Shown one piece after another: positions 177 to 60,358 of a stretch of 64,000 nucleotides of DNA. Every line of letters begins with the position of its first letter. The stretch's first letter is position 1. The notes beneath the pieces were generated by a model, which was not told where the DNA came from, did no database searches, and was given only the letters and a program-made list of their open reading frames with translations. Made by a program: the position numbers and the translations under genes. This DNA comes from Burkholderiales bacterium (GTDB lineage Bacteria; Pseudomonadota; Gammaproteobacteria; Burkholderiales; SG8-39): positions 3,927 through 67,926 of the forward strand of contig JBFFEY010000011.1 of NCBI GenBank assembly GCA_041558415.1, in the 5' to 3' direction.

Positions 177-1352
177 TCACCCCGACAGCCCTCGCGCCAG
201 GTCGGCGCACAGGTCAGCCGGCGCCTCGAGGCCGACCGCGACCCGCAGCAGGCCTTCACCGATGCCCGCCGCGGCACGCGCCTCGGCGCTGATGCGGCCG
301 TGCGTGGTGGTCGCCGGGTGCGTAATCGTCGACTTGACGTCGCCCAGGTTGGCGGTGATCGAGAGCAGGCGTGTCGCGTCGACCACGCGCCAGGCCGCCT
401 CGCGCCCGCCCTTGACGTCGAACGCCACCACCGCACCGGCTGCCTTCTGCTGGCGCTTCGCCAGCACGTGTTGCGGGTGCGATTCGAGCCCCGGGTAATA
501 CACGCGCTCGATCCCGGGATGGGCCTCGAGCCAGCGCGCGACGACCAGCGCATTGGCCGATTGCGCCTGCATGCGCAGCGTCAGCGTTTCGAGGCCTTTC
601 AGGATGACCCAAGCATTGAACGGTGACAGCGTGGGCCCGGCCGCGCGCAGGAAGGCAAACACGCCGTCCATGACCAGCGCGCGCGGTCCGACGACGGCAC
701 CGCCCAGTACACGCCCCTGACCGTCCAGATACTTGGTCGCCGAGTGCACCACCAAGTCCGCGCCAAGTTCGAGCGGGCGCTGCAGCGCCGGCGTGCAGAA
801 GCAATTGTCGACCACCAGCGTTGCGCCGACGCGCTTCGCCACCGCGGCGATGGCCGCGATGTCGGCGACCTCGGTAAGCGGATTGGAGGGCGTTTCGAGG
901 AAGAACATGCGGGTGTTGGGACGCACCGCGGCCGACCAGGCCTCGCGCTCATGGCCCCGCACGAAGCTGGTTTCGATGCCGAAACGCGCCAGAACCGTGC
1001 CGAACAGCTGCACGGTCGCACCAAAGACGGCACTCGAGCAGACGACATGATCGCCCTGCTTCAGCAGCGCCATCGCGGCGGCGAGAATCGCCGACATGCC
1101 CGAAGCCGTCGCCACGCAGGCTTCGGCACCCTCGAGAGCGGCAAGACGGTCCTGCAGCATCGACACGGTGGGATTGCTGAAGCGCGAGTAGACGAAACCG
1201 TCTTCGGCGCCCGCAAAGCGCGCCGCGGCCTGGGCAGCGCTGTCGAAGACGAAGCTGGAGGTGAGAAACAGCGCCTCGGCGTGCTCGTTGAATTCCGTGC
1301 GGACCTGGCCGGCCCGCACGCCGAGGGTTGCAAGCTCGAAAGTGTCTTTCAT
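177..1352 (-). CDS. metZ: O-succinylhomoserine sulfhydrylase
   Basis: Cys/Met PLP enzyme motifs YSRFSNPT and HSATKYLDG. Start reassigned to MKDTFELATL (ATG 1352, SD GAGGAAGG). Follows purF and carries a SAM riboswitch. Confidence 0.93.
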   Translation of the reverse strand: MKDTFELATLGVRAGQVRTEFNEHAEALFLTSSFVFDSAAQAAARFAGAEDGFVYSRFSNPTVSMLQDRLAALEGAEACVATASGMSAILAAAMALLKQGDHVVCSSAVFGATVQLFGTVLARFGIETSFVRGHEREAWSAAVRPNTRMFFLETPSNPLTEVADIAAIAAVAKRVGATLVVDNCFCTPALQRPLELGADLVVHSATKYLDGQGRVLGGAVVGPRALVMDGVFAFLRAAGPTLSPFNAWVILKGLETLTLRMQAQSANALVVARWLEAHPGIERVYYPGLESHPQHVLAKRQQKAAGAVVAFDVKGGREAAWRVVDATRLLSITANLGDVKSTITHPATTTHGRISAEARAAAGIGEGLLRVAVGLEAPADLCADLARGLSG

Positions 1353-1376
1353 GATCCCTTCCTCGGCTTGCAGGCA

Positions 1377-1407
1377 CAAAAAAACCCGGCTGCGGCGACC
1401 GGGTTTT
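1377..1407 (-). terminator. Intrinsic terminator in metZ leader (riboswitch expression platform)
   Basis: Minus strand AAAACCCGG-TCGCCGCAG-CCGGGTTTT followed by further Ts, between aptamer and metZ start. Confidence 0.8.
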
Positions 1408-1414
1408 CTCGGCA

Positions 1415-1464
1415 CGCTTTAGCAGCATTTTTTACGCGCCCGCAAGCTGTGTTCAAATCGGCGC
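1415..1464 (-). ncRNA. SAM-II riboswitch aptamer
   Basis: Minus strand GCGCC-GATTT-GAACACAG-CTTGC-GGGCGC-GTAAAAAAT-GCTG-CTAAAG. P1 is GCGCC/GGCGC, the pseudoknot is CAGC/GCTG, and the conserved GAUUU, UUGC, AAAU and CUAAA segments are present. Lies upstream of a Met-biosynthesis gene. Confidence 0.85.
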
Positions 1465-35756: not shown

Positions 35757-36770
35757 TCAGGCCGCCGCTGCGAGCGGCAGGTTGATAAGCAGATTCTGCG
35801 GCTTCATGCGCACGACGTCTGCCTCGTCCATCGACAGCGCGAGCACCACCGGAGCGCCGGCGAGGTCGGCGCGCATCGCGGCGCGCTCGGCGAAGGTCAG
35901 GCGAAACAGCGCGACGATGCGCCGCATGCGCCCAGCCTCCACCTCGCCGCCGTGCCACAGCGTGTTGAGAATCGCGGTCGACTCCGCATCGAGCCCGATG
36001 TGCCACTGCCAGCGCTGCTCCTCGAGGGCACGCACCGCCTGCACCTCGACCCGCACGCCGTGGAAATGCGCGATCCACGCTTCGATCACCCGGCAAAACG
36101 CCTCCAGGGCGGCGCTGCCCAGCTGGATCGGGATCACCGTATCGAAGCGCGATTCGCGTTCCCAGTAACGCTGCGCGTTGTCCGGCCCGAGCACGTCCAG
36201 ATCGACCCGACCGAGCCCGCCTTGCGCCTCGACGATCAGGCGCCCGAGGCTGCCGTAGCGGCTTCCGGCCGCGTGCATCTCGACCGTCTCGAGGTCGGCG
36301 AGCAGCACCTGGCCGTCGCGCAGTGTCGCCTTCTGCTCGCGAAAGAACAGCTCTGCCGCGCGCAGGCGCAACGGGTCCTCGCAGCCGTCGAGGACGTTGC
36401 GCAGGATGACATGCACCAGCTGATCGATGAACAGCGGCGGCACGTCGATTGCACCGCCCTGGAACAGCCCCGCGTAGCAGGCCTCGAGGGTACCCGCCTC
36501 GAGCAGCCGGTCGCGGAAGCGCAAAAGCAGGCGGTAGTTGTCGCGCGCGTCGCTGTCCGCGATGGCCTCGAGCTCGGCCGGCGCAACCGGCCGACGCGGC
36601 GCCGCCATCAGCGCGGCGTGCAGCGCGTTTTCCGCATCGCAGGATTCTTCCACCGGGTGGATCTCCGGCCGCAGCAGGTAGGCGCGCAGGAAATCGTCGC
36701 TCACGACCAGCTGCCCCGCGGCGTTGCGGGGCAGAAGATGAAAGCCGCTCGCGCGCCAGAACTCCGGCAT
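35757..36770 (-). CDS. Conserved hypothetical protein (resembles DUF6352 family)
   Basis: N-terminus MPEFWRASGFHLL..., RPEIHPVEESC, PPLFIDQL, W.WHIGLDAES and MKPQNLL.NLP recalled as DUF6352-like; not database-verified. Confidence 0.65.
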   Translation of the reverse strand: MPEFWRASGFHLLPRNAAGQLVVSDDFLRAYLLRPEIHPVEESCDAENALHAALMAAPRRPVAPAELEAIADSDARDNYRLLLRFRDRLLEAGTLEACYAGLFQGGAIDVPPLFIDQLVHVILRNVLDGCEDPLRLRAAELFFREQKATLRDGQVLLADLETVEMHAAGSRYGSLGRLIVEAQGGLGRVDLDVLGPDNAQRYWERESRFDTVIPIQLGSAALEAFCRVIEAWIAHFHGVRVEVQAVRALEEQRWQWHIGLDAESTAILNTLWHGGEVEAGRMRRIVALFRLTFAERAAMRADLAGAPVVLALSMDEADVVRMKPQNLLINLPLAAAA

Positions 36771-37348
36771 CAAGCCGGCGCGGTCACCAGGCGGCTGTTC
36801 GCCGCGACGTGCTGCCGGAGGAACTCCATCTGGTCGGCGTAGATGCGCCGGTTGGTGAGAATGAGATATTCCGCCTTGTTCGGCACGTACGGCGCGTACA
36901 GCAGCTCCATGCCTGACTCTTCCGGCAGGCGATTGCGCTTATGACCGTTGCAGTGCCGGCAGGCCGTGACCACGTTCATCCAGCTGTCCCGCCCGCCGCG
37001 CGACAGCGGCGTGATGTGGTCGCGGGTGAGGCGGAAATAGTTGAAGACCCGCCCGCAGTAGGCGCAGGTCTGGCGATCGCGACGGAATAGTTCGCGGTTG
37101 TTGAGAGGCGGCACCTGGTTGAAGCCGCGCGCGGCCAGCGCGCGTCCCTTGATGGCGATGATCGAATGCGCCGTGATGCTCGAGCGCTCGCCGGTCAGGC
37201 GCGACAGGCCGCCGTAGAAGGTGAAGGTCCGCTCGCCGAGGCTCCAGGCCACCAGGTCCTTCGCATAGTAAAAACAGGCCTGCTGCCAGCTGATCCAGCG
37301 GTGCGGCACGCCGTGACTGTCGAGCGAAAGAATGAGCGGACTTTCCAT
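36770..37348 (-). CDS. HNH endonuclease (McrA-like, Zn-binding)
   Basis: CAYCG...TRDHITPLSRGGRDSWMNVVTACRHCNGHK. Start ATG 37348; stop overlaps the next ATG (TGATG). Confidence 0.9.
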   Translation of the reverse strand: MESPLILSLDSHGVPHRWISWQQACFYYAKDLVAWSLGERTFTFYGGLSRLTGERSSITAHSIIAIKGRALAARGFNQVPPLNNRELFRRDRQTCAYCGRVFNYFRLTRDHITPLSRGGRDSWMNVVTACRHCNGHKRNRLPEESGMELLYAPYVPNKAEYLILTNRRIYADQMEFLRQHVAANSRLVTAPA

Positions 37349-37372
37349 GGCACGAACCTTGAATGCGCGACG

Positions 37373-37401
37373 ATTCTGCCAAGTGTCCTGCCGCTTTGCA
37401 A
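37373..37401 (-). promoter_or_regulatory. Putative sigma70 promoter for the HNH operon
   Basis: TTGCAA (37401-37396), N17, CAGAAT (37378-37373). Confidence 0.45.
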
Positions 37402-37406
37402 TCAGC

Positions 37407-37442
37407 AAAAAAACAAAAGGCTGCGGGCAAAAGCTCGCAGCC
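37407..37442 (-). terminator. Intrinsic terminator after the HU gene
   Basis: Minus strand GGCTGCG-AGC-TTTT-GCC-CGCAGCC followed by TTTTGTTTTTTT. Confidence 0.85.

Positions 37443-44959: not shown

Positions 44960-44967
<8 letters not shown>
44239..44967 (-). CDS. SDR family oxidoreductase (atypical)
   Basis: GAGDATG, FNVGAN, TGATASLRG, VAHVVIDG. Confidence 0.88.
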
Positions 44968-50053
<5,086 letters not shown>

Positions 50054-50182
50054 GCCCTCCCCCAACAAAACGCGTGATCGCGCAGTGTAACCCCACGCCC
50101 GATCAATCCGGCGTGGCGCGCGCGATCTGCGCTATGCTTCGCTGCCGCACGCGGTGCGGCCAACCACCACAACAGGAACCCC

Positions 50183-50851
50183 ATGAAGAAAATCGCAGCC
50201 GCCCTCGCGGCCGGGCTCGCGCTGGGCAGCGCCAGTGCGGCCGAACTGAGCGAAGAGCAGAAAACCTTCTACGCGCTGGGCCAGGTGCTGGCGCGCAACG
50301 TTTCGACGTTCAGCCTGACGCGCGCCGAGCTCGACGCCGTGCAGCAGGGCTTTCGCGACGGCGTGCTCGGCGCGAAGAGCGCGGTCGACATGAACGTCTA
50401 CGGACCGAAGATCCAGCCGCTGGCGACCGCGCGCCAGGCCGCGGTCGCCGAAAAATCGGCCGCAGCCGGCAAGGCGCAGCTCGCCAAGGCGGCGCAAGAA
50501 AAAGGCGCGCTGAAGGCACAAAGCGGACTCGTCTACCTCGCGCTGCGCGAGGGCAAGGGCGCCAAGCCGGCGGCGACCGACACCGTCCGCGTGCACTACC
50601 GCGGCACGCTGATCGACGGCACCGAGTTCGACAGCTCCTACAAGCGCAAGGAACCGACCGAGTTCCCGCTAAACGGCGTCATCCCCTGCTGGACCGAGGG
50701 CGTGCAGATGATGAAGGTCGGCGGCAAGGCGCGCCTGACCTGCCCGCCGGAAACGGCCTACGGCGAGCGCGGCGCCGGCGGCGTGATCCCGCCCAACGCG
50801 ACGCTCACCTTCGAGGTCGAACTGCTGGAGATCAAGCAGGCCGCCAAGTAG
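50183..50851 (+). CDS. FKBP-type peptidyl-prolyl isomerase (FkpA/Mip-like, exported)
   Basis: Signal peptide, VHYRGTLIDGTEFDSS, VIPCWTEG, AYGERG, IPPNATL.FEVELL. Confidence 0.95.
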   Translation: MKKIAAALAAGLALGSASAAELSEEQKTFYALGQVLARNVSTFSLTRAELDAVQQGFRDGVLGAKSAVDMNVYGPKIQPLATARQAAVAEKSAAAGKAQLAKAAQEKGALKAQSGLVYLALREGKGAKPAATDTVRVHYRGTLIDGTEFDSSYKRKEPTEFPLNGVIPCWTEGVQMMKVGGKARLTCPPETAYGERGAGGVIPPNATLTFEVELLEIKQAAK

Positions 50852-51609: not shown

Positions 51610-51999
51610 TCAGACCTTCGGCCGATCGAGCAGGATCTTGTAGGCGCGCAGCACCGTGCCGCCCGGCCAGGAGAGCTCGACCAGCAGATCGACGGCCGGC
51701 TCGTTGACCGAATGCCTGCCCTTGATGAGGATCACCGGCTTGCCCTCGACCGTGACGACCGAAACCTGCGCGCCCGCGACCGCGGGCTGCAGGGTCATTC
51801 CGGCCTTCTCGTAATCCTCGAGCGACGCGATACGCGCATTGAACAGCTCCTCGCCGCGCTTGAGCGCCACCAACGGGATCTCGCCCTGCAGCGGCTGGCC
51901 CAGCTTGGAGGTTACGCGCAGCTCGCCCAAGCCAGCCGCCTGCGCGAGCCACGGCCCCAGCAGCAGCAGGCCGGCCAGCATCAGGGCCCGCAGCATCAT
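51610..51999 (-). CDS. Exported protein consisting only of a FimV N-terminal domain
   Basis: Signal peptide then AGLGELRVTSKLGQPL...VNEPAVDLLVELSWPGG.VLR.YKILLDRP, matching the N-terminus of the FimV in this window (AGLGTLRVLSALGEPL...VNEPFLEMLIELEWAGGRLVREYTVLLDPP). Confidence 0.85.
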   Translation of the reverse strand: MMLRALMLAGLLLLGPWLAQAAGLGELRVTSKLGQPLQGEIPLVALKRGEELFNARIASLEDYEKAGMTLQPAVAGAQVSVVTVEGKPVILIKGRHSVNEPAVDLLVELSWPGGTVLRAYKILLDRPKV

Positions 52000-52107
52000 C
52001 GATTTGCGCACGATTCCACCCCGCGTTCTTGTTCGATCCGCGTAACACTACGGCGAGGCGCAGCGAATCTCAAGCGCTTGCCGGCCCGCGGCGTGACGTA
52101 TGACCGC

Positions 52108-52881
52108 TCAGGCCGCAGCCTGCCAGGCGATCCAGGCGCCCCAGGCGACGAGCAGCACGCCGCCCGCCTTGCCCAGACGCCCGCCCGCCGGCACGACCTT
52201 CTCGATGAGCACGAACAGCGCCAGCGCCGCGACCCAGAGCAGGTTCATCACGCCGCCGACGAACAGCAGCGCCATGAGCGCCCAGCAGCAGCCGGTGCAG
52301 AAGGCGCCGTGGCGCAGCCCCATCACCAGCGCGCCGCGCGCGCCGTCGCGCCACTCGGTCATGATGAAGCCGATCGGGCTGCGGCACTTGTCGAGGCAGA
52401 CGTCCTTGAGCGGCGCGAACTGGAACAGGCCCGCGCCGACGAGCAGCGCCGCGCCGAGCCAGGGCGCGGCCTTGCCAATCATCGGCGAGACGAGCGCGGC
52501 ACGCTCGAGCCCGTACTGCGCGCTGGTCGCGAGCAGGCTGAAGGCGGCCCAGACCAGCAGGTAGCCAGCGATGAATACGCCCGTCGACACCATGCTGCCG
52601 CCCTGTGCCTGCCGACGACGCTGGATCGCCGCAAACGTCAGGATCATCGGCGCGGCCGACGGCAGCATCATCGCCACCATCATGACGAACCACATGACGA
52701 CCATGAAGGCGAACATCCCCGCGCTCCACGCCTGCAGCTGCGGCATCGCCATGCCACCGCCCGACATGTCTATGCTGCGCGCGAGGTAAGCCGTATAGCC
52801 CCAGGCAAGCAGCACGATGAGAACGAGAGCTGCGCCGACCGTCAGGCGGTCGCGCTTGAGCAGGGCTTCGACGTGCGTCAT
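52108..52881 (-). CDS. DUF2182-like predicted metal-binding integral membrane protein
   Basis: MMVAMMLPS, LKDVCLDKCRSP, GAFCTGCCWALM.LLFVGGVMNL.W. Start ATG 52881. Confidence 0.85.
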   Translation of the reverse strand: MTHVEALLKRDRLTVGAALVLIVLLAWGYTAYLARSIDMSGGGMAMPQLQAWSAGMFAFMVVMWFVMMVAMMLPSAAPMILTFAAIQRRRQAQGGSMVSTGVFIAGYLLVWAAFSLLATSAQYGLERAALVSPMIGKAAPWLGAALLVGAGLFQFAPLKDVCLDKCRSPIGFIMTEWRDGARGALVMGLRHGAFCTGCCWALMALLFVGGVMNLLWVAALALFVLIEKVVPAGGRLGKAGGVLLVAWGAWIAWQAAA

Positions 52882-52909
52882 GCGCAAGCGCCCAGCAGCT
52901 GCAGGCTGG

Positions 52910-53386
52910 CTATTTTTTCGCCTGCGCCTCGAGGAAGTTGACCATGCGCACCACGTCGGTCGCCTCGACGCGGCCAATGGGCCCGGAGCTGTAGGTCGCA
53001 CTCAGAACCTTGCCGCCCTGCCCAATGAGGAACTCCGAGGGCTGGATGACCTGGCGCTTGTCCTCCCACCAGGAACCCAGCTGCTCGGCCTGCGCGCGCG
53101 TCACGCCGTAGCCCACAGGGAAGCTGAGCGCGGCAGCCACTTCCTTCGCCTTGTCGAGCGGATCGACGCTCGCCGCGAAGACTTTGACGCCCGCCGCAGT
53201 GAGCTGCGCCTTCCAGAATTCGAAGCCGGCCAACTGCCGGCGGCAGTACGGTCACCAGTGCCCGCGGTAGAACAGGATGACCTTGTACTTGGCGTCGATT
53301 CCGTCGGGCAGCTCGAGCGTGCTGCCGTCGACCAGGCTTAGCGTCATCTTCGGAAAGACGTCGCCGGTGTTCAGCTTTTGCGCCAT
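52910..53386 (-). CDS. Selenocysteine-containing peroxiredoxin-like (AhpC/TSA, UxxC) protein, 158 aa, Sec45
   Basis: ATG 53386 with SD GGGAGGG. MAQKLNTGDVFP...VILFYRGHW-(TGA 53254-53252)-PYCRRQL continues in frame into the ORF-track fragment 52910-53233. SECIS-like hairpin follows; adjacent to selC. Confidence 0.9.
53225..53254 (-). promoter_or_regulatory. Putative bacterial SECIS element (peroxiredoxin)
   Basis: UGA-CCGUACUGCC-[GCCGGC-AGUUG-GCCGGC]. Confidence 0.7.
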
Positions 53387-53413
53387 CGCCTCACCCTCCC
53401 GATGCGCATGATA

Positions 53414-53509
53414 TGGCGGAAAAGAGTGGGAGTCGAACCCACCAGGGACGTCTGACGCCCCTCACTGGATTTGAAGTCCAGGCGCCCCACCGGGGTGCGA
53501 TTCTCTTCC
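53414..53509 (-). tRNA. selC: tRNA-Sec (anticodon UCA), 96 nt
   Basis: 8-bp acceptor stem GGAAGAGA/UCUUUUCC, discriminator G plus CCA, anticodon arm CUGGA-CUUCAAA-UCCAG, long variable arm AGGGGCG-UCAGA-CGUCCCU, T arm GUGGG-UUCGACU-CCCAC. Confidence 0.97.
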
Positions 53510-55393
53510 GTGCTGGTCGCGCTGCAGCACGTGCGCATCGCCCTTGCGTCGGGTGAATTTTATCCGGTCGAAGAACTCGAGCACCTCGATCGTGAGGTTG
53601 CGCCCGATGCCCGAGCGGTCGCGGAACGCCGCCGCGGTGATCGCGCCGCTGGCGTGCGCCTCCTCTTCCGCGAGTTGTTCGAGACGGCGCAGTGCCGCAG
53701 GCAGGAAGAAGCGCGTTTTCGAAACGCGCACCAGCAAACCCTGACGCTCGAGACGTGACAGCGCGGCCTCGAGTCTGCGCGGATCGGTCGCGAGCGTTGC
53801 GGCCAGCTCGACGACGCTCGGCGCACGCAAGGCGCTCGATGCGAGCAGCGGTTCGACCTTCTGCCACAGCGCGGCATCGGCGGCGCTGAGCTGAATCCGA
53901 TGCTCCGCCAGACGCAGGCCCGCGCCGTCACGCACGACCCTGCCCTCGCTCACCAGCGACTCGATGAGCGTCGTCAGCGCCGCGCGCGGCAGGCGCAGGC
54001 CGCTGCCCTCGAGCAGGCGGGATTCCGGCGGACCGGCGCTGTCCGGCGCCCGGCGGTGCCAGGCGGTGAGCGCTTCGAGCGCCTTGGCGCGCAGCGCATC
54101 CCAGTGCGCCGGTGAAAAACCCCAGTCGCCGGCGCGCTGTACGGGCAAGCGCTCGGCCAGCGCCACGGCGGCGGCTGGCGTCAGGTTGCGATTCATCGCG
54201 AAGCGCGTCAGGTCGACGCCCTCGGCTGCCTGCGCCAGCAACGCCCCGAGCGCCGCGGCGGGATCGTCGAGCACCTGCGCGGCGAGCGCGGCGAGGCGCT
54301 CGGGCCGCGCCCGGCCGCGCGCCGGCGGAAAGACGTCGATCACGCGACCGCCGGCGAGCGTGCGCCGCGCGGACTGGTCGCGCAGGATGAAGCCGTCGCC
54401 GAACAGCGCGCCGAGTGGGCGGTCGAGCACGAGCTGCACCAGGCCCGCGGCGCCCGGCGCGATGCTGTCGCCCTCGAGCAGCGCGACGCGGCCGATGACG
54501 TTGGCGGCGCCGAGGTGGACGTGCACCGGCGTCCAGTGCGCGAGCGGCTTTGCCTCGTCCGCCAGCACGCGCAACCGCGCGTCGAACTTGCGCACCGCCG
54601 CAGGCACGTCGCCGGCGACGATCCAGTCGCCCCGCTCGATCGCCGTCTTATCGCCGAGCCCGGCGAGATTGAGCGCACAACGCTGCCCCGCAACGCCCCG
54701 CTGCGCCGCCGCGTTCTGCGCATGGATCGCGCGCACGCGCGCCGACTGTCCCGCGAGCAGCGCACGCACCGCGTCGCCGACGCGGATTGCGCCGCTCACG
54801 ACCGTGCCGGTCACGACCAGGCCGGCGCCGGCAATGGTGAAGGTGCGGTCGACCGCGAGGCGGAAGTTGCCCTCGTCTGTCCGCGGCCGCAGCGCCTGCG
54901 CCGCCGCTTGCAGATGCGCCTTCAGCGCGGCGACGCCGTGACCGCCGAGGCTCGAGAGCGGAAACACGGGCGCGGCGCGCAGAGCGGTCGGCGCGAGCAG
55001 CGCGGCGAGCAGCGCCTTGACTTCGGCCACGCGCGCGTCGCTCACGCGATCGATCTTGGTGAGCGCCACCGCGCCCTGTGATACCCCCAGCAGGTCGAGG
55101 ATCGCCAGGTGCTCGCGCGTCTGCGGCATCGGCCCGTCGTCGGCGGCGACGACGAGCAGCGCAAAGTCGATGCCCGCGACGCCGGACAGCATGTTGTGCA
55201 CGAAGCGCTCGTGGCCGGGCACGTCGACGAAGCCGATCGTCTGCGCGTCGTCCACGGGGAGGTAAGCGAAGCCGAGGTCGATCGTCAGGCCGCGCTTTTT
55301 CTCCTCCGGCAGGCGATCGGTGTCGACGCCGGTGAGCGCGCGCACCAGGCTGGTCTTGCCGTGGTCGACGTGGCCCGCCGTGGCGACGATCAC
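53462..55393 (-). CDS. selB: Selenocysteine-specific elongation factor
   Basis: [31 protein letters not shown]; C-terminal winged helix [24 protein letters not shown] start overlaps the selA stop; last 16 codons lie inside selC. Confidence 0.97.
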
Positions 55394-56766
55394 GCGCCCT
55401 CCAGCTGCGCGGCGAAGCGCGCTTCGTCGGCCGGCTCCAGGCCGCGCAGGTCGAGAATCAGGGCACCGTCCTGCAGGCGGCCGATGACCGGAACCGGCAG
55501 CGCGCGAAACGCGGTGGCAAGGCGCGTCGTGCCCGGGCGCAGCGCGAGCCCCGCGCTCGCGAGGTGCTGGCGCGGCGCCGCCCCGCTGCCGACCTCGCTC
55601 TCGCAGTCGATCACGCTCACCTCGACGCCCGGCTTGGCCCAGGCGGCCAGCCGCGGGCGCAGGCGATCGGCCATCGTGCGGAGGTCCGCCACCGATCGCG
55701 CCAGGCGACGCAGCACGGGCAGGCGCGTCGCCACGCGCTCGGGATCCTGGTAGAGCCGCAACACCGCGGCGAGCGCCGCCACGGTGAGCTTGTCGACGCG
55801 CAGCGCGCGCTTCAGCGGGTTGCGCCGCAGCCGGGCGACGAGATCCGCGCGCCCGACGATGATCCCCGCCTGCGGGCCGCCGAGCAGCTTGTCGCCGCTG
55901 AAGCTAACCAGGTCGGCGCCCTGCGCGATGGCCTGCGCCGGGGTCGGCTCGGCCGGCAGGCCGAAGCGCCGCAGGTCGACCAGCGTGCCGCTGCCGAGAT
56001 CGACCACGAAGGGCACGCCCCGCGCGCGGCACAGCGTGGCGAGGTCGCGCTCGGCGACCGCCGCGGTAAAGCCCTCGATGGCGTAGTTGCTGGCGTGCGC
56101 CTTCAGCACCAGCCCGGTCTTCGATCCGATCGCCTGCGCGAAATCGTCGAGATGCGTGCGGTTGGTCGTGCCGACTTCGCGCAGCCTGCAGCCCGCGCGC
56201 TGCATGAGGTCCGGCAGACGGAACGAGCCGCCGATCTCGATCAGCTCGCCGCGCGAGACCGGCACTTCCTTGCGCTTGGCGAGCGTGTTCAGCATCAGCA
56301 GCACCGCGGCCGCGTTGTTGTTCACCACGGTGGCCGCCGGTGCGCCGGTCAGCGCGCACAGCAGCCGTTCGAGGTGATGGTCGCGCTCGCCGCGCCGGCC
56401 CGTGGCGAGGTCGTACTCCAGATTCGTCGCCTCGCGCGCGGCCTCGCACAGTGCGTCGATCGCCTCCTCGGGCAGCGGCGCGCGACCGAGATTGGTGTGC
56501 AGCAGCGTGCCGGTGAGGTTGAACACCGGGCGCAGCGAGGAACGCGCCTGCTGCGCGAGGCGCTCGGCGACGCGGCCGACGACGGCGTGCGCCACGTCCT
56601 GCGGCAGGGCCGCGCGCGCGCTGCGCAGGTCATCGAGCACGCCGCGGATCGCGTCGGTCACCGCCGCGCGGCCGTAGGCGGCGATCAGCGCGTCGGCTTC
56701 CGGCCGCCGCAGCAAACGGTCGACCGAGGGCAGCGCGGCAAGTGCGGAAGCGCGTGAATCCACCAT
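55390..56766 (-). CDS. selA: L-seryl-tRNA(Sec) selenium transferase
   Basis: [58 protein letters not shown]. Start ATG 56766. Confidence 0.97.
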
Positions 56767-56833
56767 GTCTGGAACGCTCGGGAAGATGGCCCTATGATAG
56801 CCAACGTCCCTCCACGAGACCGAAAGGCCAGCC

Positions 56834-57610
56834 ATGCGTGCCGAGACGCCCGTCGATCCCGTCGCCCTGCGCGAGGAGGTCAAGATCAAGTACCGCGAAG
56901 TCGCCTGCAATCCGCAGGGCAAGTACCACTTTCACACCGGCCGGCGCCTGGCGAGGCGCCTGGGCTACGACGACGCGGTCGTCGCGCGCATGCCGGACGA
57001 GGCGGTCGAGTCCTTCGCCGGGGTCGCCAACCCGTTCGCGCTGCGCGCGCTCGCGCCCGGCGAGACCGTCGTCGACGTCGGCTCGGGCGCGGGCTTCGAC
57101 TGCTTCATCGCCGCGCAGCAGGTCGGCGCCGGCGGAAAGGTGGTCGGCGTCGACATGCTCGAGGAAATGCTGCAGAAGGCGCGCGCCAGTGCCGCGCGCA
57201 TGGGTCTGACGAATGTCGAATTCCGCGCGGGCCTGATCGAGGCGATGCCGGTCGAGGACGGCTGGGCCGACGTCGTCATCAGCAACGGCGTCATGAACCT
57301 GTGCGCCGACAAGAAAAAGGCGTTCGCGGAGATCTGGCGCGTGCTCAAGCCCGGCGGGCGGCTGCAGTTCGCCGATATCGCCAACGGCAAGCCCGTGCCG
57401 GAAGCGGCCATCCGCAACATCGATCTCTGGACCGCTTGAATCGCCGGCGGCCTTCCGTGTGAAGGCTGGCGGGCGATGCTGGAGCAGATCGGCTTCGTCG
57501 AGGTGCAGATCGGCGCGCCCTGCGACACCTTCGGCGAGGCCGCCGGCGAGAAGAACGCGCGCAGCTTCGAGGTCTACGGCTACCCGTTCCTCGCGCGCAA
57601 GCCGACGTAA
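56834..57610 (+). CDS. Selenocysteine-containing ArsM-like SAM-dependent methyltransferase, 258 aa, Sec202
   Basis: Motif [29 protein letters not shown]-(TGA 57437-57439)[24 protein letters not shown]...[12 protein letters not shown] continues as a plausible ArsM-type C-terminus. SECIS-like hairpin follows; divergent from selA. Confidence 0.85.
57437..57471 (+). promoter_or_regulatory. Putative bacterial SECIS element (methyltransferase)
   Basis: UGA-AUCGCCGGCG-[GCCUUC-CGUGU-GAAGGC]-UGGCG, with possible lower stem CGCCG/UGGCG. Confidence 0.75.
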
Positions 57611-57687
57611 GCGCCGCGGGCGCCGGGTGCCCGCCGCCAGCGAACCTGAGTCACCCCGGGCGATGGCGCAGGATTTATGATCCGCGC

Positions 57688-58812
57688 GTGTCCAGCCCGG
57701 AATCCAACGCGCCTTCGCATCGTGCCGCGCGGCGCCGCCGCGCGCCGCTCAACCTGGTCGTGCTGGGCCTGGCGATCGTCCTCGCGCTCGGCTTCGGCTA
57801 CCGCGAGTTTCGTCAGCGCCTGCTCTTTCTGCACGAGGAGGATGCGCGCATCCGCGCCGACATGGTGACCGTCGCCAGCCGCGTCGCCGGCTGGGTGACG
57901 CGCGTCGCGGCACAGGAGGGTCAGGCAGTGGCGGCCGGCACGGTGCTGGTCGAGGTCGACCGACGCGATGCCGCGCTCGCGCTGGAGGAGCTCGACGCGC
58001 AGCGCGCCGCGCTGGCGGCCGAGCGTTCGCGCCTGGCCGCCGAGCAGGCGCTGGTGCGCGGCCAGACCGAGAGCCATCTGCAGTCGGCGCGCGCCGAACG
58101 CGAGGCGGCGCGCGTGACCGTCTCCAGCCTCGAGCCGCAGCGCAGCCTGGCGCGCAGCGAGCTGAAGCGCAGCCAGCAGCTGTTCGACAAGAAGATGGCC
58201 TCGCAGAGTGCGCGCGACCAGGCCGAGACGCAGCTGCAGCGCGTCGAGCGCGAGTACCGCATCGCGGCCGCCAACCTGGAGGGCGCGGAGGCGCGCGTGC
58301 GCGAGGCCGAGGCCGAGCGCGCGCGCCTCGATGTGCTGGCCGGCCAGCTTGCGGTGCTCGAGACGCGCGAGGCCGAGATCGCGGCGCGCCTGCAGCGCCA
58401 GCGACTCGACCTCGGCGACCGAATTGTCAAGAGCCCGCTCGACGGCGTGGTCGACCGCAAGTTCGTCGAGGCCGGCGAGTACGTCTCGCCGGGGCAGCGG
58501 CTGATGCTGCTGCACGACCCGTCGAAGGTCTGGGTCGAGGCCAACATCAAGGAGACGGCGTTGCGCCGGCTCGCGGTCGGCCAGACCGTGCGCGTGCGCG
58601 TCGACGCCTATCCGGACGAGACCTTCGAGGGCCGCATCGAGCGCATTGGCCACGCCGCCACCAGCACCTTCGCGCTGCTGCCGAGCCCGAACCCGAGCGG
58701 CAACTTCACCAAGATCACGCAGCGCGTGCCGGTGCGCATCGCGGTCGCGCAGCGCGAGGGCCGGCTGCGCCCGGGCATGATGGTCGAGATCAAGATTGCC
58801 ACCGGCGGTTGA
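57688..58812 (+). CDS. HlyD/EmrA family membrane fusion protein
   Basis: N-terminal TM, VASRVAGWV, coiled coil, VKSPLDGVV, VWVEANIKET, NPSGNFTKITQRVPVRI, LRPGM. Confidence 0.93.
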   Translation: MSSPESNAPSHRAARRRRAPLNLVVLGLAIVLALGFGYREFRQRLLFLHEEDARIRADMVTVASRVAGWVTRVAAQEGQAVAAGTVLVEVDRRDAALALEELDAQRAALAAERSRLAAEQALVRGQTESHLQSARAEREAARVTVSSLEPQRSLARSELKRSQQLFDKKMASQSARDQAETQLQRVEREYRIAAANLEGAEARVREAEAERARLDVLAGQLAVLETREAEIAARLQRQRLDLGDRIVKSPLDGVVDRKFVEAGEYVSPGQRLMLLHDPSKVWVEANIKETALRRLAVGQTVRVRVDAYPDETFEGRIERIGHAATSTFALLPSPNPSGNFTKITQRVPVRIAVAQREGRLRPGMMVEIKIATGG

Positions 58813-60358
58813 CGCGAGCCTCGGTATCGAGGCCCTGTTCCAGCGCTACGGGCCTGCGTACCGCTGGCTGGTGACCGTCGGCGGGCTGCTCGGCGCGATG
58901 TCGATGGTGCTTTCGTCGACGATGATCAACGTCGCGGTGCCGAGCATCATGGGCGCCTTCGGCATCGGCCAGGATCTCGCGCAGTGGGCGGCGACCGCGT
59001 TCCTCGCGACCATGGTGGCAAGCCAGCTGCTAAACGCCTGGGCGGTGGAGGCCTTCGGCCAGCGCATCACGTTCTGCCTCGCCTTGCTGATCTTCGTGCT
59101 CGGCGCGCTGATCGGCGCCAACGCGACCAGCATCGAGACGCTGATCGCGGGGCGCGTGCTGCAGGGCTTTTCCGCGGGCCTGGTGCAGCCGCTGGTGATG
59201 GCGACGGTGGTGGCGGTATTTCCCGCCGAGCGGCGCGGCATGGCCGTGAGCCTTTACTCGGTGGGCGTCACCATGGCGCCGAGCTTCGGTCCCTGGATCG
59301 GCGGCCTGGCGATCGATGCCATGAACTGGCGCCAGATCTTCATGGTGCCGCTGCCGCTGGTGGGGCTGGCTTTCCTGCTCGGGCTGGTGCTCATGCCGTC
59401 GAAGAAGCTCTCGCGCCGGCTGCCGAAGTTCGACTGGAGCGGCTACGCGCTGCTCACGCTCGCGCTGATGTGCGTGATGAGCGTGATCGGCAACGGCCAG
59501 CGCTGGGGGTGGAGCTCCGACCGCAGCGCCACCTTTCTCGTCGTCGGCCTGGCCGCAGCGGCGCTGTTCACCCTGCTCCAACTGCGTTCGAAAAACCCCC
59601 TGCTCGACGTCAGCCTGTTCGCCGACCTGCGCTTCACCGCGGCGATGGGCATCGCTTTTGCCTTCGGCGCGGGCAACTTCGCCACCAACTACGCCATCCC
59701 GGTGTTCATGCAGACCGTACAGGGCTTCACGCCGACCGAGGCCGGCTTCGTACTGGTGCCCGCCGGCATCCTGCTGGTGACGATGATCCCGGGCGTCGGT
59801 CGGCTCGCCGACACGCTGCCTTCGCACCTGCCGATCATGCTCGGTTGCGTGCTGTTCTCGCTCGCCGGCTGGCTGCTGTCCGATACCGACGTCAACACCG
59901 CGTTCTGGACCATGGCCGGCTTCGCCATCGTCAGCCGCATCGCGCTCGGCCTGGTGATGCCGAACCTCGGCAAGGTGGCGATGAGCACGGTGCCGGCCGG
60001 CAAGCTGAACCAGGGCGCCGGCACCTACAACTTCATCCGCCAGATGGGCGGCGCCTTCGGCGTCGCCCTGACGGCGGTCGCGATCGAGCTGCGCACCGCG
60101 CGCCACGCCGACCTGCTGACCGCGACACAAACGCCGGCCAACGTGCAGACCCGCGAACTGCTCGATCGCGTCGCCGAGCTGCTCGCCCGCGGCGGGCTGC
60201 CGGAATCGCTGCTGCAGCCCGGCGCGCTCGACTACCTCGGCCGCGTACTCTACGCGCAAGCGCTCGGCCTCGGCTTCCAGGACGCGTACTTCTTCATCTG
60301 CTTCGCCTTCGCGCTCGCCCTCGTGCCGGCCTGGTTCCTCGGGCGGGCGGGGCGCTAG
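58796..60358 (+). CDS. DHA2/EmrB family MFS efflux transporter
   Basis: STMINVAVPSI, GRVLQG, RG.A, PSFGP.IGG, W..IF; about 14 TMs; overlaps the end of the fusion-protein gene. Confidence 0.93.
   Translation: MPPAVDASLGIEALFQRYGPAYRWLVTVGGLLGAMSMVLSSTMINVAVPSIMGAFGIGQDLAQWAATAFLATMVASQLLNAWAVEAFGQRITFCLALLIFVLGALIGANATSIETLIAGRVLQGFSAGLVQPLVMATVVAVFPAERRGMAVSLYSVGVTMAPSFGPWIGGLAIDAMNWRQIFMVPLPLVGLAFLLGLVLMPSKKLSRRLPKFDWSGYALLTLALMCVMSVIGNGQRWGWSSDRSATFLVVGLAAAALFTLLQLRSKNPLLDVSLFADLRFTAAMGIAFAFGAGNFATNYAIPVFMQTVQGFTPTEAGFVLVPAGILLVTMIPGVGRLADTLPSHLPIMLGCVLFSLAGWLLSDTDVNTAFWTMAGFAIVSRIALGLVMPNLGKVAMSTVPAGKLNQGAGTYNFIRQMGGAFGVALTAVAIELRTARHADLLTATQTPANVQTRELLDRVAELLARGGLPESLLQPGALDYLGRVLYAQALGLGFQDAYFFICFAFALALVPAWFLGRAGR

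Follow-up and report, generated by a model that had tools for sequence, protein, structure and literature searches.

Here, we describe a selenocysteine (Sec) locus at positions 52,108 to 60,358 of a 64,000-nucleotide stretch of Burkholderiales DNA (hereafter the window; GenBank assembly GCA_041558415.1, contig JBFFEY010000011.1). Its center is an operon for Sec insertion, selA-selB-selC, and directly on either side of this operon stands a gene cut by an in-frame TGA, one for a peroxiredoxin (Prx)-like protein and the other for a protein resembling the arsenite methyltransferase ArsM. Comparison with related sequences leads us, with high confidence, to regard both as genes for selenoproteins. 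It is also quite probable, in our view, that the operon simply adjoins two of its clients, that this clustering reflects co-inheritance or co-expression and not one pathway, and that the DUF2182 and EmrAB genes at the two ends of the stretch are variable neighbors. An earlier note on this DNA, made from the sequence alone, had drawn the gene map as DUF2182, Prx (TGA), selC, selB and selA, followed divergently by the methyltransferase (TGA), EmrA and EmrB, and all these genes were found with coordinates that agree within a few bases (table 1).

The window is a piece of contig C11 of a genome assembly (G000) of 3.54 Mb in 113 contigs, 96% complete, and the nearest relatives identify the organism as an uncultured member of the Burkholderiales/Betaproteobacteria represented by a metagenome-assembled genome (MAG). 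The proteins of the window were compared, by tblastn and by de novo clustering of open reading frames (ORFs), with 87 loci (L-numbers) from species-representative genomes. Five genomes make up the genus set, that is, the window genome and four relatives (G001-G004); ALJrbin.28 (L027/L030) and SG8_39 (L029) are among the genus members.

The TGA of the Prx-like gene (53254-53252) would encode residue 45, within the motif HWUPYC, and that of the methyltransferase gene (57437-57439) residue 202, within the motif LWTAUIAGG (UIAG). Homology runs across both codons: the PF00578 match covers residues 8-127 of the Prx-like protein, the NF008823 match covers residues 13-227 of the methyltransferase, with a score under the cut-off of 263, and tblastn alignments cross each TGA unbroken at 55-88% identity. 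A coding-type GC content at third codon positions (GC3) persists past the TGA in the Prx-like gene (0.85) as well as in the methyltransferase gene (0.93). The aligned codon is TGA in 17 of 17 Prx-like loci of this subfamily and in 67 of the 69 full-length methyltransferase homologs, the other two (L092, L093) having TGC; remoter methyltransferase homologs show TGC or TGT (L097, L102) or again TGA (L099). Contigs from four other metagenome runs revealed no variant at either position. Rare homologs with Cys at the Sec position exist for both proteins, full-length in the public database at 55-75% identity, and those of the Prx-like protein at 55-64% identity carry GHWCPYC. Both genes combine, in this way, a conserved in-frame TGA with Cys homologs and with homology downstream. 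The same database holds the two proteins mostly as fragments, of 107 aa for the Prx-like protein and 201 aa for the methyltransferase.

Both mRNAs also contain, soon after the UGA, a stem-loop with G(U) in the apical loop, which are the features of a bacterial Sec insertion sequence (SECIS). The 5-nt apical loop of each hairpin occupies nucleotides 20-24 counting from the U of UGA. Covariation of the pairs was evaluated against shuffle controls (n = 500) and slid registers. In the Prx hairpin, 100% of the cells are paired among 14 distinct sequences and two pairs are altered on both sides (CG to GC in L033, GC to AU in L028), a degree of covariation that none of the 500 shuffles reached and to which no slid register came close. 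The methyltransferase hairpin, with 92.3% of the cells paired among 26 diverse sequences, keeps the loop CGUG(U/C); its pair 18-26 is GC in 14 sequences and UA in 11, a switch in which a synonymous Leu change compensates for a Glu/Ala replacement. Its covariation score was likewise reached by 0 of 500 shuffles, and RNAalifold recovered the same upper stem. Codon choice is more uniform where the hairpins lie: among sequences sharing the majority residue, the majority-codon share for codons +1 to +10 of the Prx-like gene is 0.94 versus 0.75 and 0.76 in the flanks, and for the ten codons past the methyltransferase TGA it is 0.78 versus 0.65 and 0.70. Moreover, the hairpin is degraded in the two methyltransferases with a Cys codon (L092, L093). 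An Rfam scan at gathering thresholds gave no match to a SECIS family, only to tRNA-Sec and SAM_alpha, and no Rfam family covers bacterial SECIS. The conserved TGAs, the hairpins and the database fragments bear out the earlier proposal that the two flanking genes are selenoprotein genes hidden by truncation.

The genome encodes what is needed to use these signals. SelA and SelB score above their curated cut-offs, the tRNA-Sec has a UCA anticodon, and selD, which the earlier note proposed to look for elsewhere in the genome, was located on another contig (C33:1024-1950; TIGR00476 435 bits, cut-off 125) and codes for a Cys-type protein (GGGCGCK). The start of selA is probably the ATG at 56766, a choice that also took into account where the alignments of relatives begin. 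The selB product has detectable beta-barrel and winged-helix domains, and its GTG start codon overlaps the selA stop codon (GTGA). At the other end of selB, the first 48 nt of selC, comprising the acceptor 5' strand, the D arm and the anticodon arm, double as the last 15 codons and TGA stop of selB (53462-53509). An overlap of about 45 nt is retained in L023, L027, L029, L034, L037 and L038, among others, and is absent in L019, L021, L047 and L049. The short gap between selA and the methyltransferase gene presumably holds the promoters of both; no consensus sigma-70 site was found in it, and the promoter scan indicated one weak sigma-70-like site, inside the 3' end of tRNA-Sec.

From these data, we picture selA-selB-selC as a chromosomal, translationally coupled operon adjoining two genes that it would serve. 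SelB carrying Sec-tRNA(Sec) would decode UGA as Sec in both client mRNAs, the short hairpin with G-U in its apical loop 20-24 nt downstream would act as the bacterial SECIS, and selenophosphate would be supplied by the Cys-type SelD encoded on the other contig. One relative that carries both TGA genes, G018, at first appeared to have no selB; this was rejected when a looser search found the C-terminal half of the gene, and the gap can be attributed to assembly fragmentation because that half sits at a contig end beside the Prx gene.

Table 1. Position of the genes and RNA elements of the Sec locus within the window, with the evidence for each assignment
Feature	Position	Strand	Evidence
DUF2182/PpoB2 integral membrane protein, 257 aa	52108..52881	-	PF09948 235.5 bits
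Prx-like thiol:disulfide oxidoreductase, predicted selenoprotein, 158 aa	52910..53386	-	PF00578 70.8 bits
SECIS-type hairpin, Prx-like mRNA	53225..53241	-	6-bp stem GCCGGC/GCCGGC, loop AGUUG
selC, tRNA-Sec, anticodon UCA	53414..53509	-	ARAGORN; Rfam RF01852 75.4 bits (gathering score 47)
selB, Sec-specific elongation factor, 643 aa	53462..55393	-	TIGR00475 454.7 bits (cut-off 242)
selA, L-seryl-tRNA(Sec) selenium transferase, ~458 aa	55390..56766	-	TIGR00474 580.4 bits (cut-off 268)
Divergent intergenic region, selA/methyltransferase gene, 67 bp	56767..56833	.	coordinates of flanking genes
ArsM-like SAM-dependent methyltransferase, predicted selenoprotein, 258 aa	56834..57610	+	NF008823 231.4 bits; Methyltransf_31 113 bits
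SECIS-type hairpin, methyltransferase mRNA	57448..57468	+	8-bp stem, 6 strong pairs GCCUUC/GAAGGC, loop CGUGU
EmrA/HlyD-family periplasmic adaptor, 374 aa	57688..58812	+	HlyD_D23 and HlyD_3 domains
DHA2-family EmrB-like MFS efflux permease, 520 aa	58796..60358	+	TIGR00711 290 bits (cut-off 230)

The core of the locus, with Prx, selC, selB and selA on one strand and the methyltransferase gene on the other, has the same order and spacing throughout the five genomes of the genus, each time on a single contig, and was met again in additional Burkholderiales MAGs (L033, L038, L040, L049 and others). The divergent arrangement of selA and the methyltransferase gene is kept in L022/31, L027/30, L029, L033, L038, L040 and L049. 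Rearranged cores occur as well: L034 and L037 have the methyltransferase gene convergent with selC, whereas in L019-L026 it is the Prx gene that converges on selC. About 13 of 15 informative loci place this Prx subfamily next to selC/selB. The methyltransferase gene has sel genes at 8 kb or less in 17 of about 68 loci, distributed among Beta- and Alphaproteobacteria (including a Rhodospirillales MAG, L077) and Actinomycetota; a rough arithmetic, without a computed test, puts the chance of sel genes falling within a 16-kb span around a random gene of a 4-Mb genome at about 0.4%. In one actinomycetotal MAG (L085:6827-10154), the Sec-methyltransferase gene lies between a divergent selD and selA. 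Other members of the genus have an AhpD-like ORF 3' of the Sec-methyltransferase gene (L031:8883-9464, L038:7478-8080, L022:2993-3574), split by an in-frame stop, presumably TGA, right past ...INDCAY, which would give a CxxU motif. It is probably a further selenoprotein; the joined protein is unrecognized by Pfam, and thioredoxin and DsbA-like genes follow it.

Contigs from four environmental RNA runs match the locus with 0-2 mismatches. One of them (X26 record 11) spans selB-selC-Prx, including the TGA, another (X26 record 10, 52612-53049) spans the junction between Prx and DUF2182, and two more (X25 record 4, X26 record 13) run from the methyltransferase gene through its TGA to the stop codon. 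No metatranscriptome contig bridges the methyltransferase and EmrA genes, and the segment 57620-57900 has zero or near-zero depth in all four runs. The contigs that link selB, selC, Prx and DUF2182 are in line with co-transcription of these genes. These contigs are weak evidence that the locus is transcribed in the environment. As for DNA, 94-97% of the sampled words of 52900-57700 were present in metagenomes from 13 studies that are labelled soil, sediment, freshwater and marine, with word depths that are alike at about 9x; either the organism is very widespread, or some of the data sets share material or are synthetic.

The Prx-like gene is directly 3' of the tRNA-Sec gene, its ATG (53386) being 27 nt past selC and preceded by a AGGGUGAGG-type Shine-Dalgarno sequence, and it is probably co-transcribed with selC. 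Its product has an AhpC/TSA domain with UxxC at the thioredoxin-type redox position (U45-P-Y-C48), so that Sec would be the first residue of the CxxC motif and a selenenylsulfide would be formed and reduced during catalysis. In eight aligned homologs, P46, C48 and the flanking residues are invariant, and the first column varies between U, C and W. The protein has no signal peptide and is therefore presumably cytoplasmic. We rejected its classification as a peroxiredoxin proper of the AhpC or BCP type: the PxxxT/SxxC(U) signature is lacking, with Gly instead of Thr or Ser at -3 of the Sec and no Pro at -7 (VILFYRGHWUPYC), NF006960 gives 30 bits against a cut-off of 140, and the scores are far under other equivalog cut-offs as well. 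Some ENA-derived entries (P0126, P0127, P0143, P0192) print W at the Sec position (GHWWPYC), apparently TGA translated as Trp under another genetic code, a second kind of mis-annotation beside truncation.

The other client is a methyltransferase dependent on S-adenosylmethionine (SAM), as indicated by its Methyltransf_31/25/11 matches, and it is transcribed divergently from selA across the 67-bp control region. It aligns with residues 57-249 of CmArsM (E = 1e-26; structures 4kw7/4fr0), with which it shares the class-I methyltransferase fold and SAM motifs, and its Sec202 falls exactly on Cys224, the As(III)/substrate-binding residue of that enzyme. The remaining cysteines differ: Val stands at the position of Cys72 and Gly at that of Cys174, no equivalent of Cys44 is conserved, and the N-terminal Cys25 is found in just 8 of 69 homologs. 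Instead, and unlike ArsM, the family has an N-terminal HFHTGR motif and conserves Cys157 (NLCxDK; 65 of 69 homologs) and Cys209 (63 of 69, with Arg in the actinobacterial members). Its UIAG matches the motif UxxG given for the arsenite methyltransferase selenoproteins (ArsM, PRK11873/NF008823; PMC13188914 table), with which it also shares the fold. A working definition of ArsM calls for at least three of four conserved cysteines, C44, C72, C174 and C224 of CmArsM (PMC5552862). Only one of them is kept here, as Sec, and besides NF008823, the Sec-ArsM "exception" and fusion models NF041537, NF047649 and NF041536 also score below their cut-offs (205-230 bits). We therefore rejected the label of arsenite methyltransferase for this protein, although it would act in the manner of ArsM-type enzymes, as a SAM methyltransferase whose substrate site has a soft nucleophile or ligand.

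SAM would donate its methyl group to a soft metalloid or chalcogen that is bound by Sec202 and Cys157, and possibly by Cys209 too. We give about an even chance to this general mechanism, in which Sec202 and Cys157 hold a thiophilic metalloid or chalcogen for methylation with SAM; arsenite is a possible substrate, and the role in selenium, arsenic or thiol-metalloid handling suggested in the earlier note is likewise possible. The neighbors of the gene point to soft-metal, metalloid or chalcogen chemistry without singling out one substrate. Outside the sel context, a DsrE-like gene recurs directly upstream on the same strand in at least nine loci, and other recurrent neighbors are ArsR-rhodanese regulators, metallo-beta-lactamase (MBL)-rhodanese proteins and pairs of extracytoplasmic function (ECF) sigma and anti-sigma factors. 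Several Burkholderiales MAGs have, just upstream of the Sec-methyltransferase gene, a paralog with TGC at the Sec position (41-47% identity) that is fused to a C-terminal MerT (PF02411, 82.9 bits) or MerC-like membrane domain (L046:2247-3419, L048:1366-2550, L036:24-974), often with a DsrE-like gene between the two. Such a fusion of a methyltransferase with a mercury transporter is unusual. The TGA-containing gene is also present in a cultured bacterium, Desertibaculum subflavum SYSU D60015 (L074).

The genes at the two ends of the stretch behave differently from the core. The adaptor and the permease of table 1 form an EmrAB-type pair (a 14-TMS DHA2 permease with an HlyD-family protein), with the emrB start overlapping the 3' end of emrA. 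The adaptor gives 209 bits with TIGR00998, under its cut-off of 390, and 119 bits with TIGR01730, over its cut-off of 94.9; domain scans of the window found no outer-membrane factor gene adjoining the pair, and the promoter/terminator scan found no terminator between the methyltransferase gene and emrA. The DNA of the closest relative is collinear with the whole stretch except for two insertions, one of 0.85 kb between Prx and DUF2182 and one of 4.5 kb between the methyltransferase gene and emrA, the latter with four genes. DUF2182 follows Prx in three of the five genus members (the window genome, ALJrbin.28 and SG8_39), and in ALJrbin.28 a DUF1326 gene, the usual partner of DUF2182, sits between them. 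Across the 87 loci, neither EmrAB nor DUF2182 was found to travel with the selenoprotein genes. We conclude that EmrAB and DUF2182 are variable neighbors and not conserved partners, DUF2182/PpoB2 being peripheral and local to the lineage.

Three other explanations have to be weighed against this one. First, the TGAs might be ordinary stop codons, the genes might be decaying pseudogenes with relic homology, or UGA might be read as Trp or Cys in some other way; gene callers do stop both genes at the TGA, databases store the fragments, and there are the ENA entries with W. We regard this as extremely improbable, since the TGA is kept across dozens of species from several phyla with no other disruption, coding GC3 and 60-88% identity continue beyond it, conserved hairpins lie 3' of both codons, and the genome has a complete selABCD set, while TGA is the normal stop of most of its genes, as in soxY, which ends GGCGG-TGA. 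The second is the proposal of the earlier note that the whole 8.2-kb stretch is one selenium/metalloid module, with a redox branch and a methylation/export branch co-regulated with the Sec machinery. The tight spacing speaks for it (28 nt from Prx to the downstream DUF2182 gene, 78 nt from the methyltransferase gene to emrA), as do the RNA contig across Prx-DUF2182 and the retention of DUF2182 in part of the genus; ArsM-like proteins yield exportable or volatile methylated metalloids, and the MerT/MerC-fused paralogs of other MAGs hint at a link with metal transport. Synteny, nevertheless, sustains only the core of this module, in five of five genomes. EmrAB abuts the methyltransferase gene in the window genome alone (one of four informative genomes), being displaced in the closest relative and absent from the surroundings of the gene in the rest of the genus and in some 65 further methyltransferase loci; among the loci compared, EmrB lies near the gene only in L030. 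Of 15 other Prx loci, 12 lack DUF2182 beside Prx, RNA depth drops to zero or nearly so between the methyltransferase gene and emrA, and one MAG separates the Prx-sel cluster from the methyltransferase gene by about 105 kb of a single contig (L019/L067). Such a module thus seems very unlikely to us, and an operon beside two separate clients is the reading we prefer. Several observations count against that preference. The RNA contig over the Prx-DUF2182 junction, together with the retention of DUF2182 in three of five genomes, leaves room for a real functional link, and the metatranscriptome contigs are unstranded and may include DNA. Single-sequence folding after the Prx TGA is unremarkable (z = -2.09 and +0.61), so that support for the hairpin is comparative; covariation was counted in coding sequence of related genomes, where events are not independent, and in the methyltransferase hairpin only one pair changed on both sides. 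Finally, the organism is uncultured, and we infer the actual insertion of Sec at both TGAs from sequence comparison.

The third explanation concerns the substrate of the methyltransferase: the enzyme might not act on arsenic at all but, as part of the selenium or sulfur-chalcogen economy of the cell, methylate a chalcogen that Sec202 and Cys157 carry, either selenide/perselenide or sulfide/persulfide. This would explain why its gene recurs beside selD, selA and selB, which it does in three phyla including the position between selD and selA in L085, and it is consistent with the absence of three of the four canonical ArsM cysteines, when at least three are called for (PMC5552862), and with the DsrE-like, ArsR-rhodanese and MBL-rhodanese neighbors, which are of sulfur- or persulfide-handling types. 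Proximity to sel genes, however, is no weaker for the unrelated Prx-like protein and is seen also for the UGSC (see below) and AhpD-like selenoproteins, so it may just reflect the clustering of Sec clients with their machinery. Three conserved soft ligands (C157, U202 and C209) could still bind As(III), and the MerT/MerC-fused paralogs suggest metals over chalcogens. We consider it unlikely that the methyltransferase of the window acts in this way, and equally so that the widespread Sec-methyltransferase family as a whole, nearly all of whose database entries are truncated (Beta-, Alpha- and Gammaproteobacteria, Binatia, Actinomycetota) consists of chalcogen methyltransferases and not of arsenite enzymes. 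If it did, it would represent a selenoenzyme in charge of the selenium supply of its own cell, or it would offer a new way of making volatile methylated forms of selenium or sulfur.

The earlier note named formate dehydrogenase (FDH) as the main Sec client of many Proteobacteria, and this does not apply to the present genome. Three homologs of the FDH alpha subunit were found (C20:14706-16811, C47:17286-19385, C6:31556-34402), and because none of them has an in-frame stop, the client typical of Proteobacteria is no selenoprotein in this genome. A genome-wide scan for in-frame TGAs based on GC3, which was not exhaustive, returned 128 candidates, nearly all of which were rejected as adjacent genes in the same frame. 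Among the false positives were a SoxY candidate, whose TGA is followed by SoxZ, and a LuxR-type candidate on C68 that is two genes. The sole further survivor is a third selenoprotein gene, of the UGSC family (C39:25779-26309, minus strand; TGA at C39:26030), whose product gives 127.6 bits with NF041046 (cut-off 125) and whose mRNA forms a hairpin past the TGA, the loop of which has GUU at +23 to +25, with the G-U at 23-24. UGSC homologs stand beside the Sec-methyltransferase gene in L039 and near selA in L047. The Sec machinery of this bacterium is predicted to have three or more clients, all of them small proteins of a redox or metal type.

Other parts of the window have features of their own. 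A SAM_alpha riboswitch match (RF00521, 37.2 bits, gathering score 36) at 1398-1474 on the minus strand overlaps the 5' end of the ORF 177-1415 (-); the SAM_alpha family was described for Alphaproteobacteria, whereas the present genome is betaproteobacterial. A sensor histidine kinase of 1702 aa with six GAF and several PAS domains (44960-50068, minus strand) is followed by genes for an FKBP (50183-50851), a FimV_N-domain protein (51610-52011) and a spermidine synthase-like protein, all kept in the closest relatives; the likeness to spermidine synthase is our reading of the sequence, as Pfam and NCBIfam gave no family. An HNH endonuclease gene adjoins a DUF6352 gene at 35757-37408 (-) and is unrelated to the Sec locus.

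The gene arrangement by itself reveals no new mechanism, and the locus is not a new system; its practical value lies in annotation and in one biochemical question. Truncated records fill hundreds of clusters, so metabolic reconstructions of abundant sediment and soil Burkholderiales miss both proteins. A proteobacterial lineage appears to retain the costly Sec machinery without a Sec-FDH, for a small set of Prx-like, ArsM-like and UGSC proteins. The methyltransferase subfamily, in turn, fails the ArsM cysteine signature and yet is strongly conserved across phyla; it merits biochemical study, and there is a cultured carrier.

Reviews already include the two selenoprotein families (PMC13188914, PMC9312934, PMC1088965), and the families, the selC/selB overlap and the clustering of selenoprotein genes are all present in published catalogs. 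We found no published description of this exact pairing around selABC, which appears to be undescribed. The Prx-like protein belongs with the catalogued UxxC "Prx-like thiol:disulfide oxidoreductase" family (PMC1088965; PMC2398784; PMC13188914), that is, "Prx-like 1" of the Sargasso Sea and Global Ocean Sampling (GOS) selenoproteomes of Zhang and Gladyshev. It shares with that family the AhpC/TSA fold, a thioredoxin-type UxxC that opens with Sec where true Sec-peroxiredoxins have TxxU, the existence of Cys homologs and a usually truncated annotation. The subfamily described here, FYRGHWUPYCRRQL, differs from the rest in being almost confined to Burkholderiales MAGs and in nearly always adjoining selC/selB.

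Overlap of selC with selB, including nesting, is known (Mukai 2021, as cited in PMC9312934 and PMC13188914). In the cases covered by these citing reviews, selC overlaps the selB 3' end on the same strand, as in our locus; here the overlap is partial (48 nt, through the anticodon arm), in contrast to the complete nesting reported there, and the lineage is Burkholderiales, where the reviews name Alphaproteobacteria, Gammaproteobacteria and Nitrospirae. It is likewise known that selenoprotein genes may stand next to Sec genes or form operons of their own (PMC13188914 section 9; PMC1273633). In grdA-grdB, frhA-frhD-hdrA, SAO and Tso, and with the Sec-containing SelD of Photobacterium profundum, encoded beside selAB, selenoprotein genes cluster with one another or with the machinery just as they do here, in keeping with co-inheritance or co-expression. 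What sets the present locus apart from these operons is that two functionally unrelated clients flank selA-selB-selC directly, one on each side.

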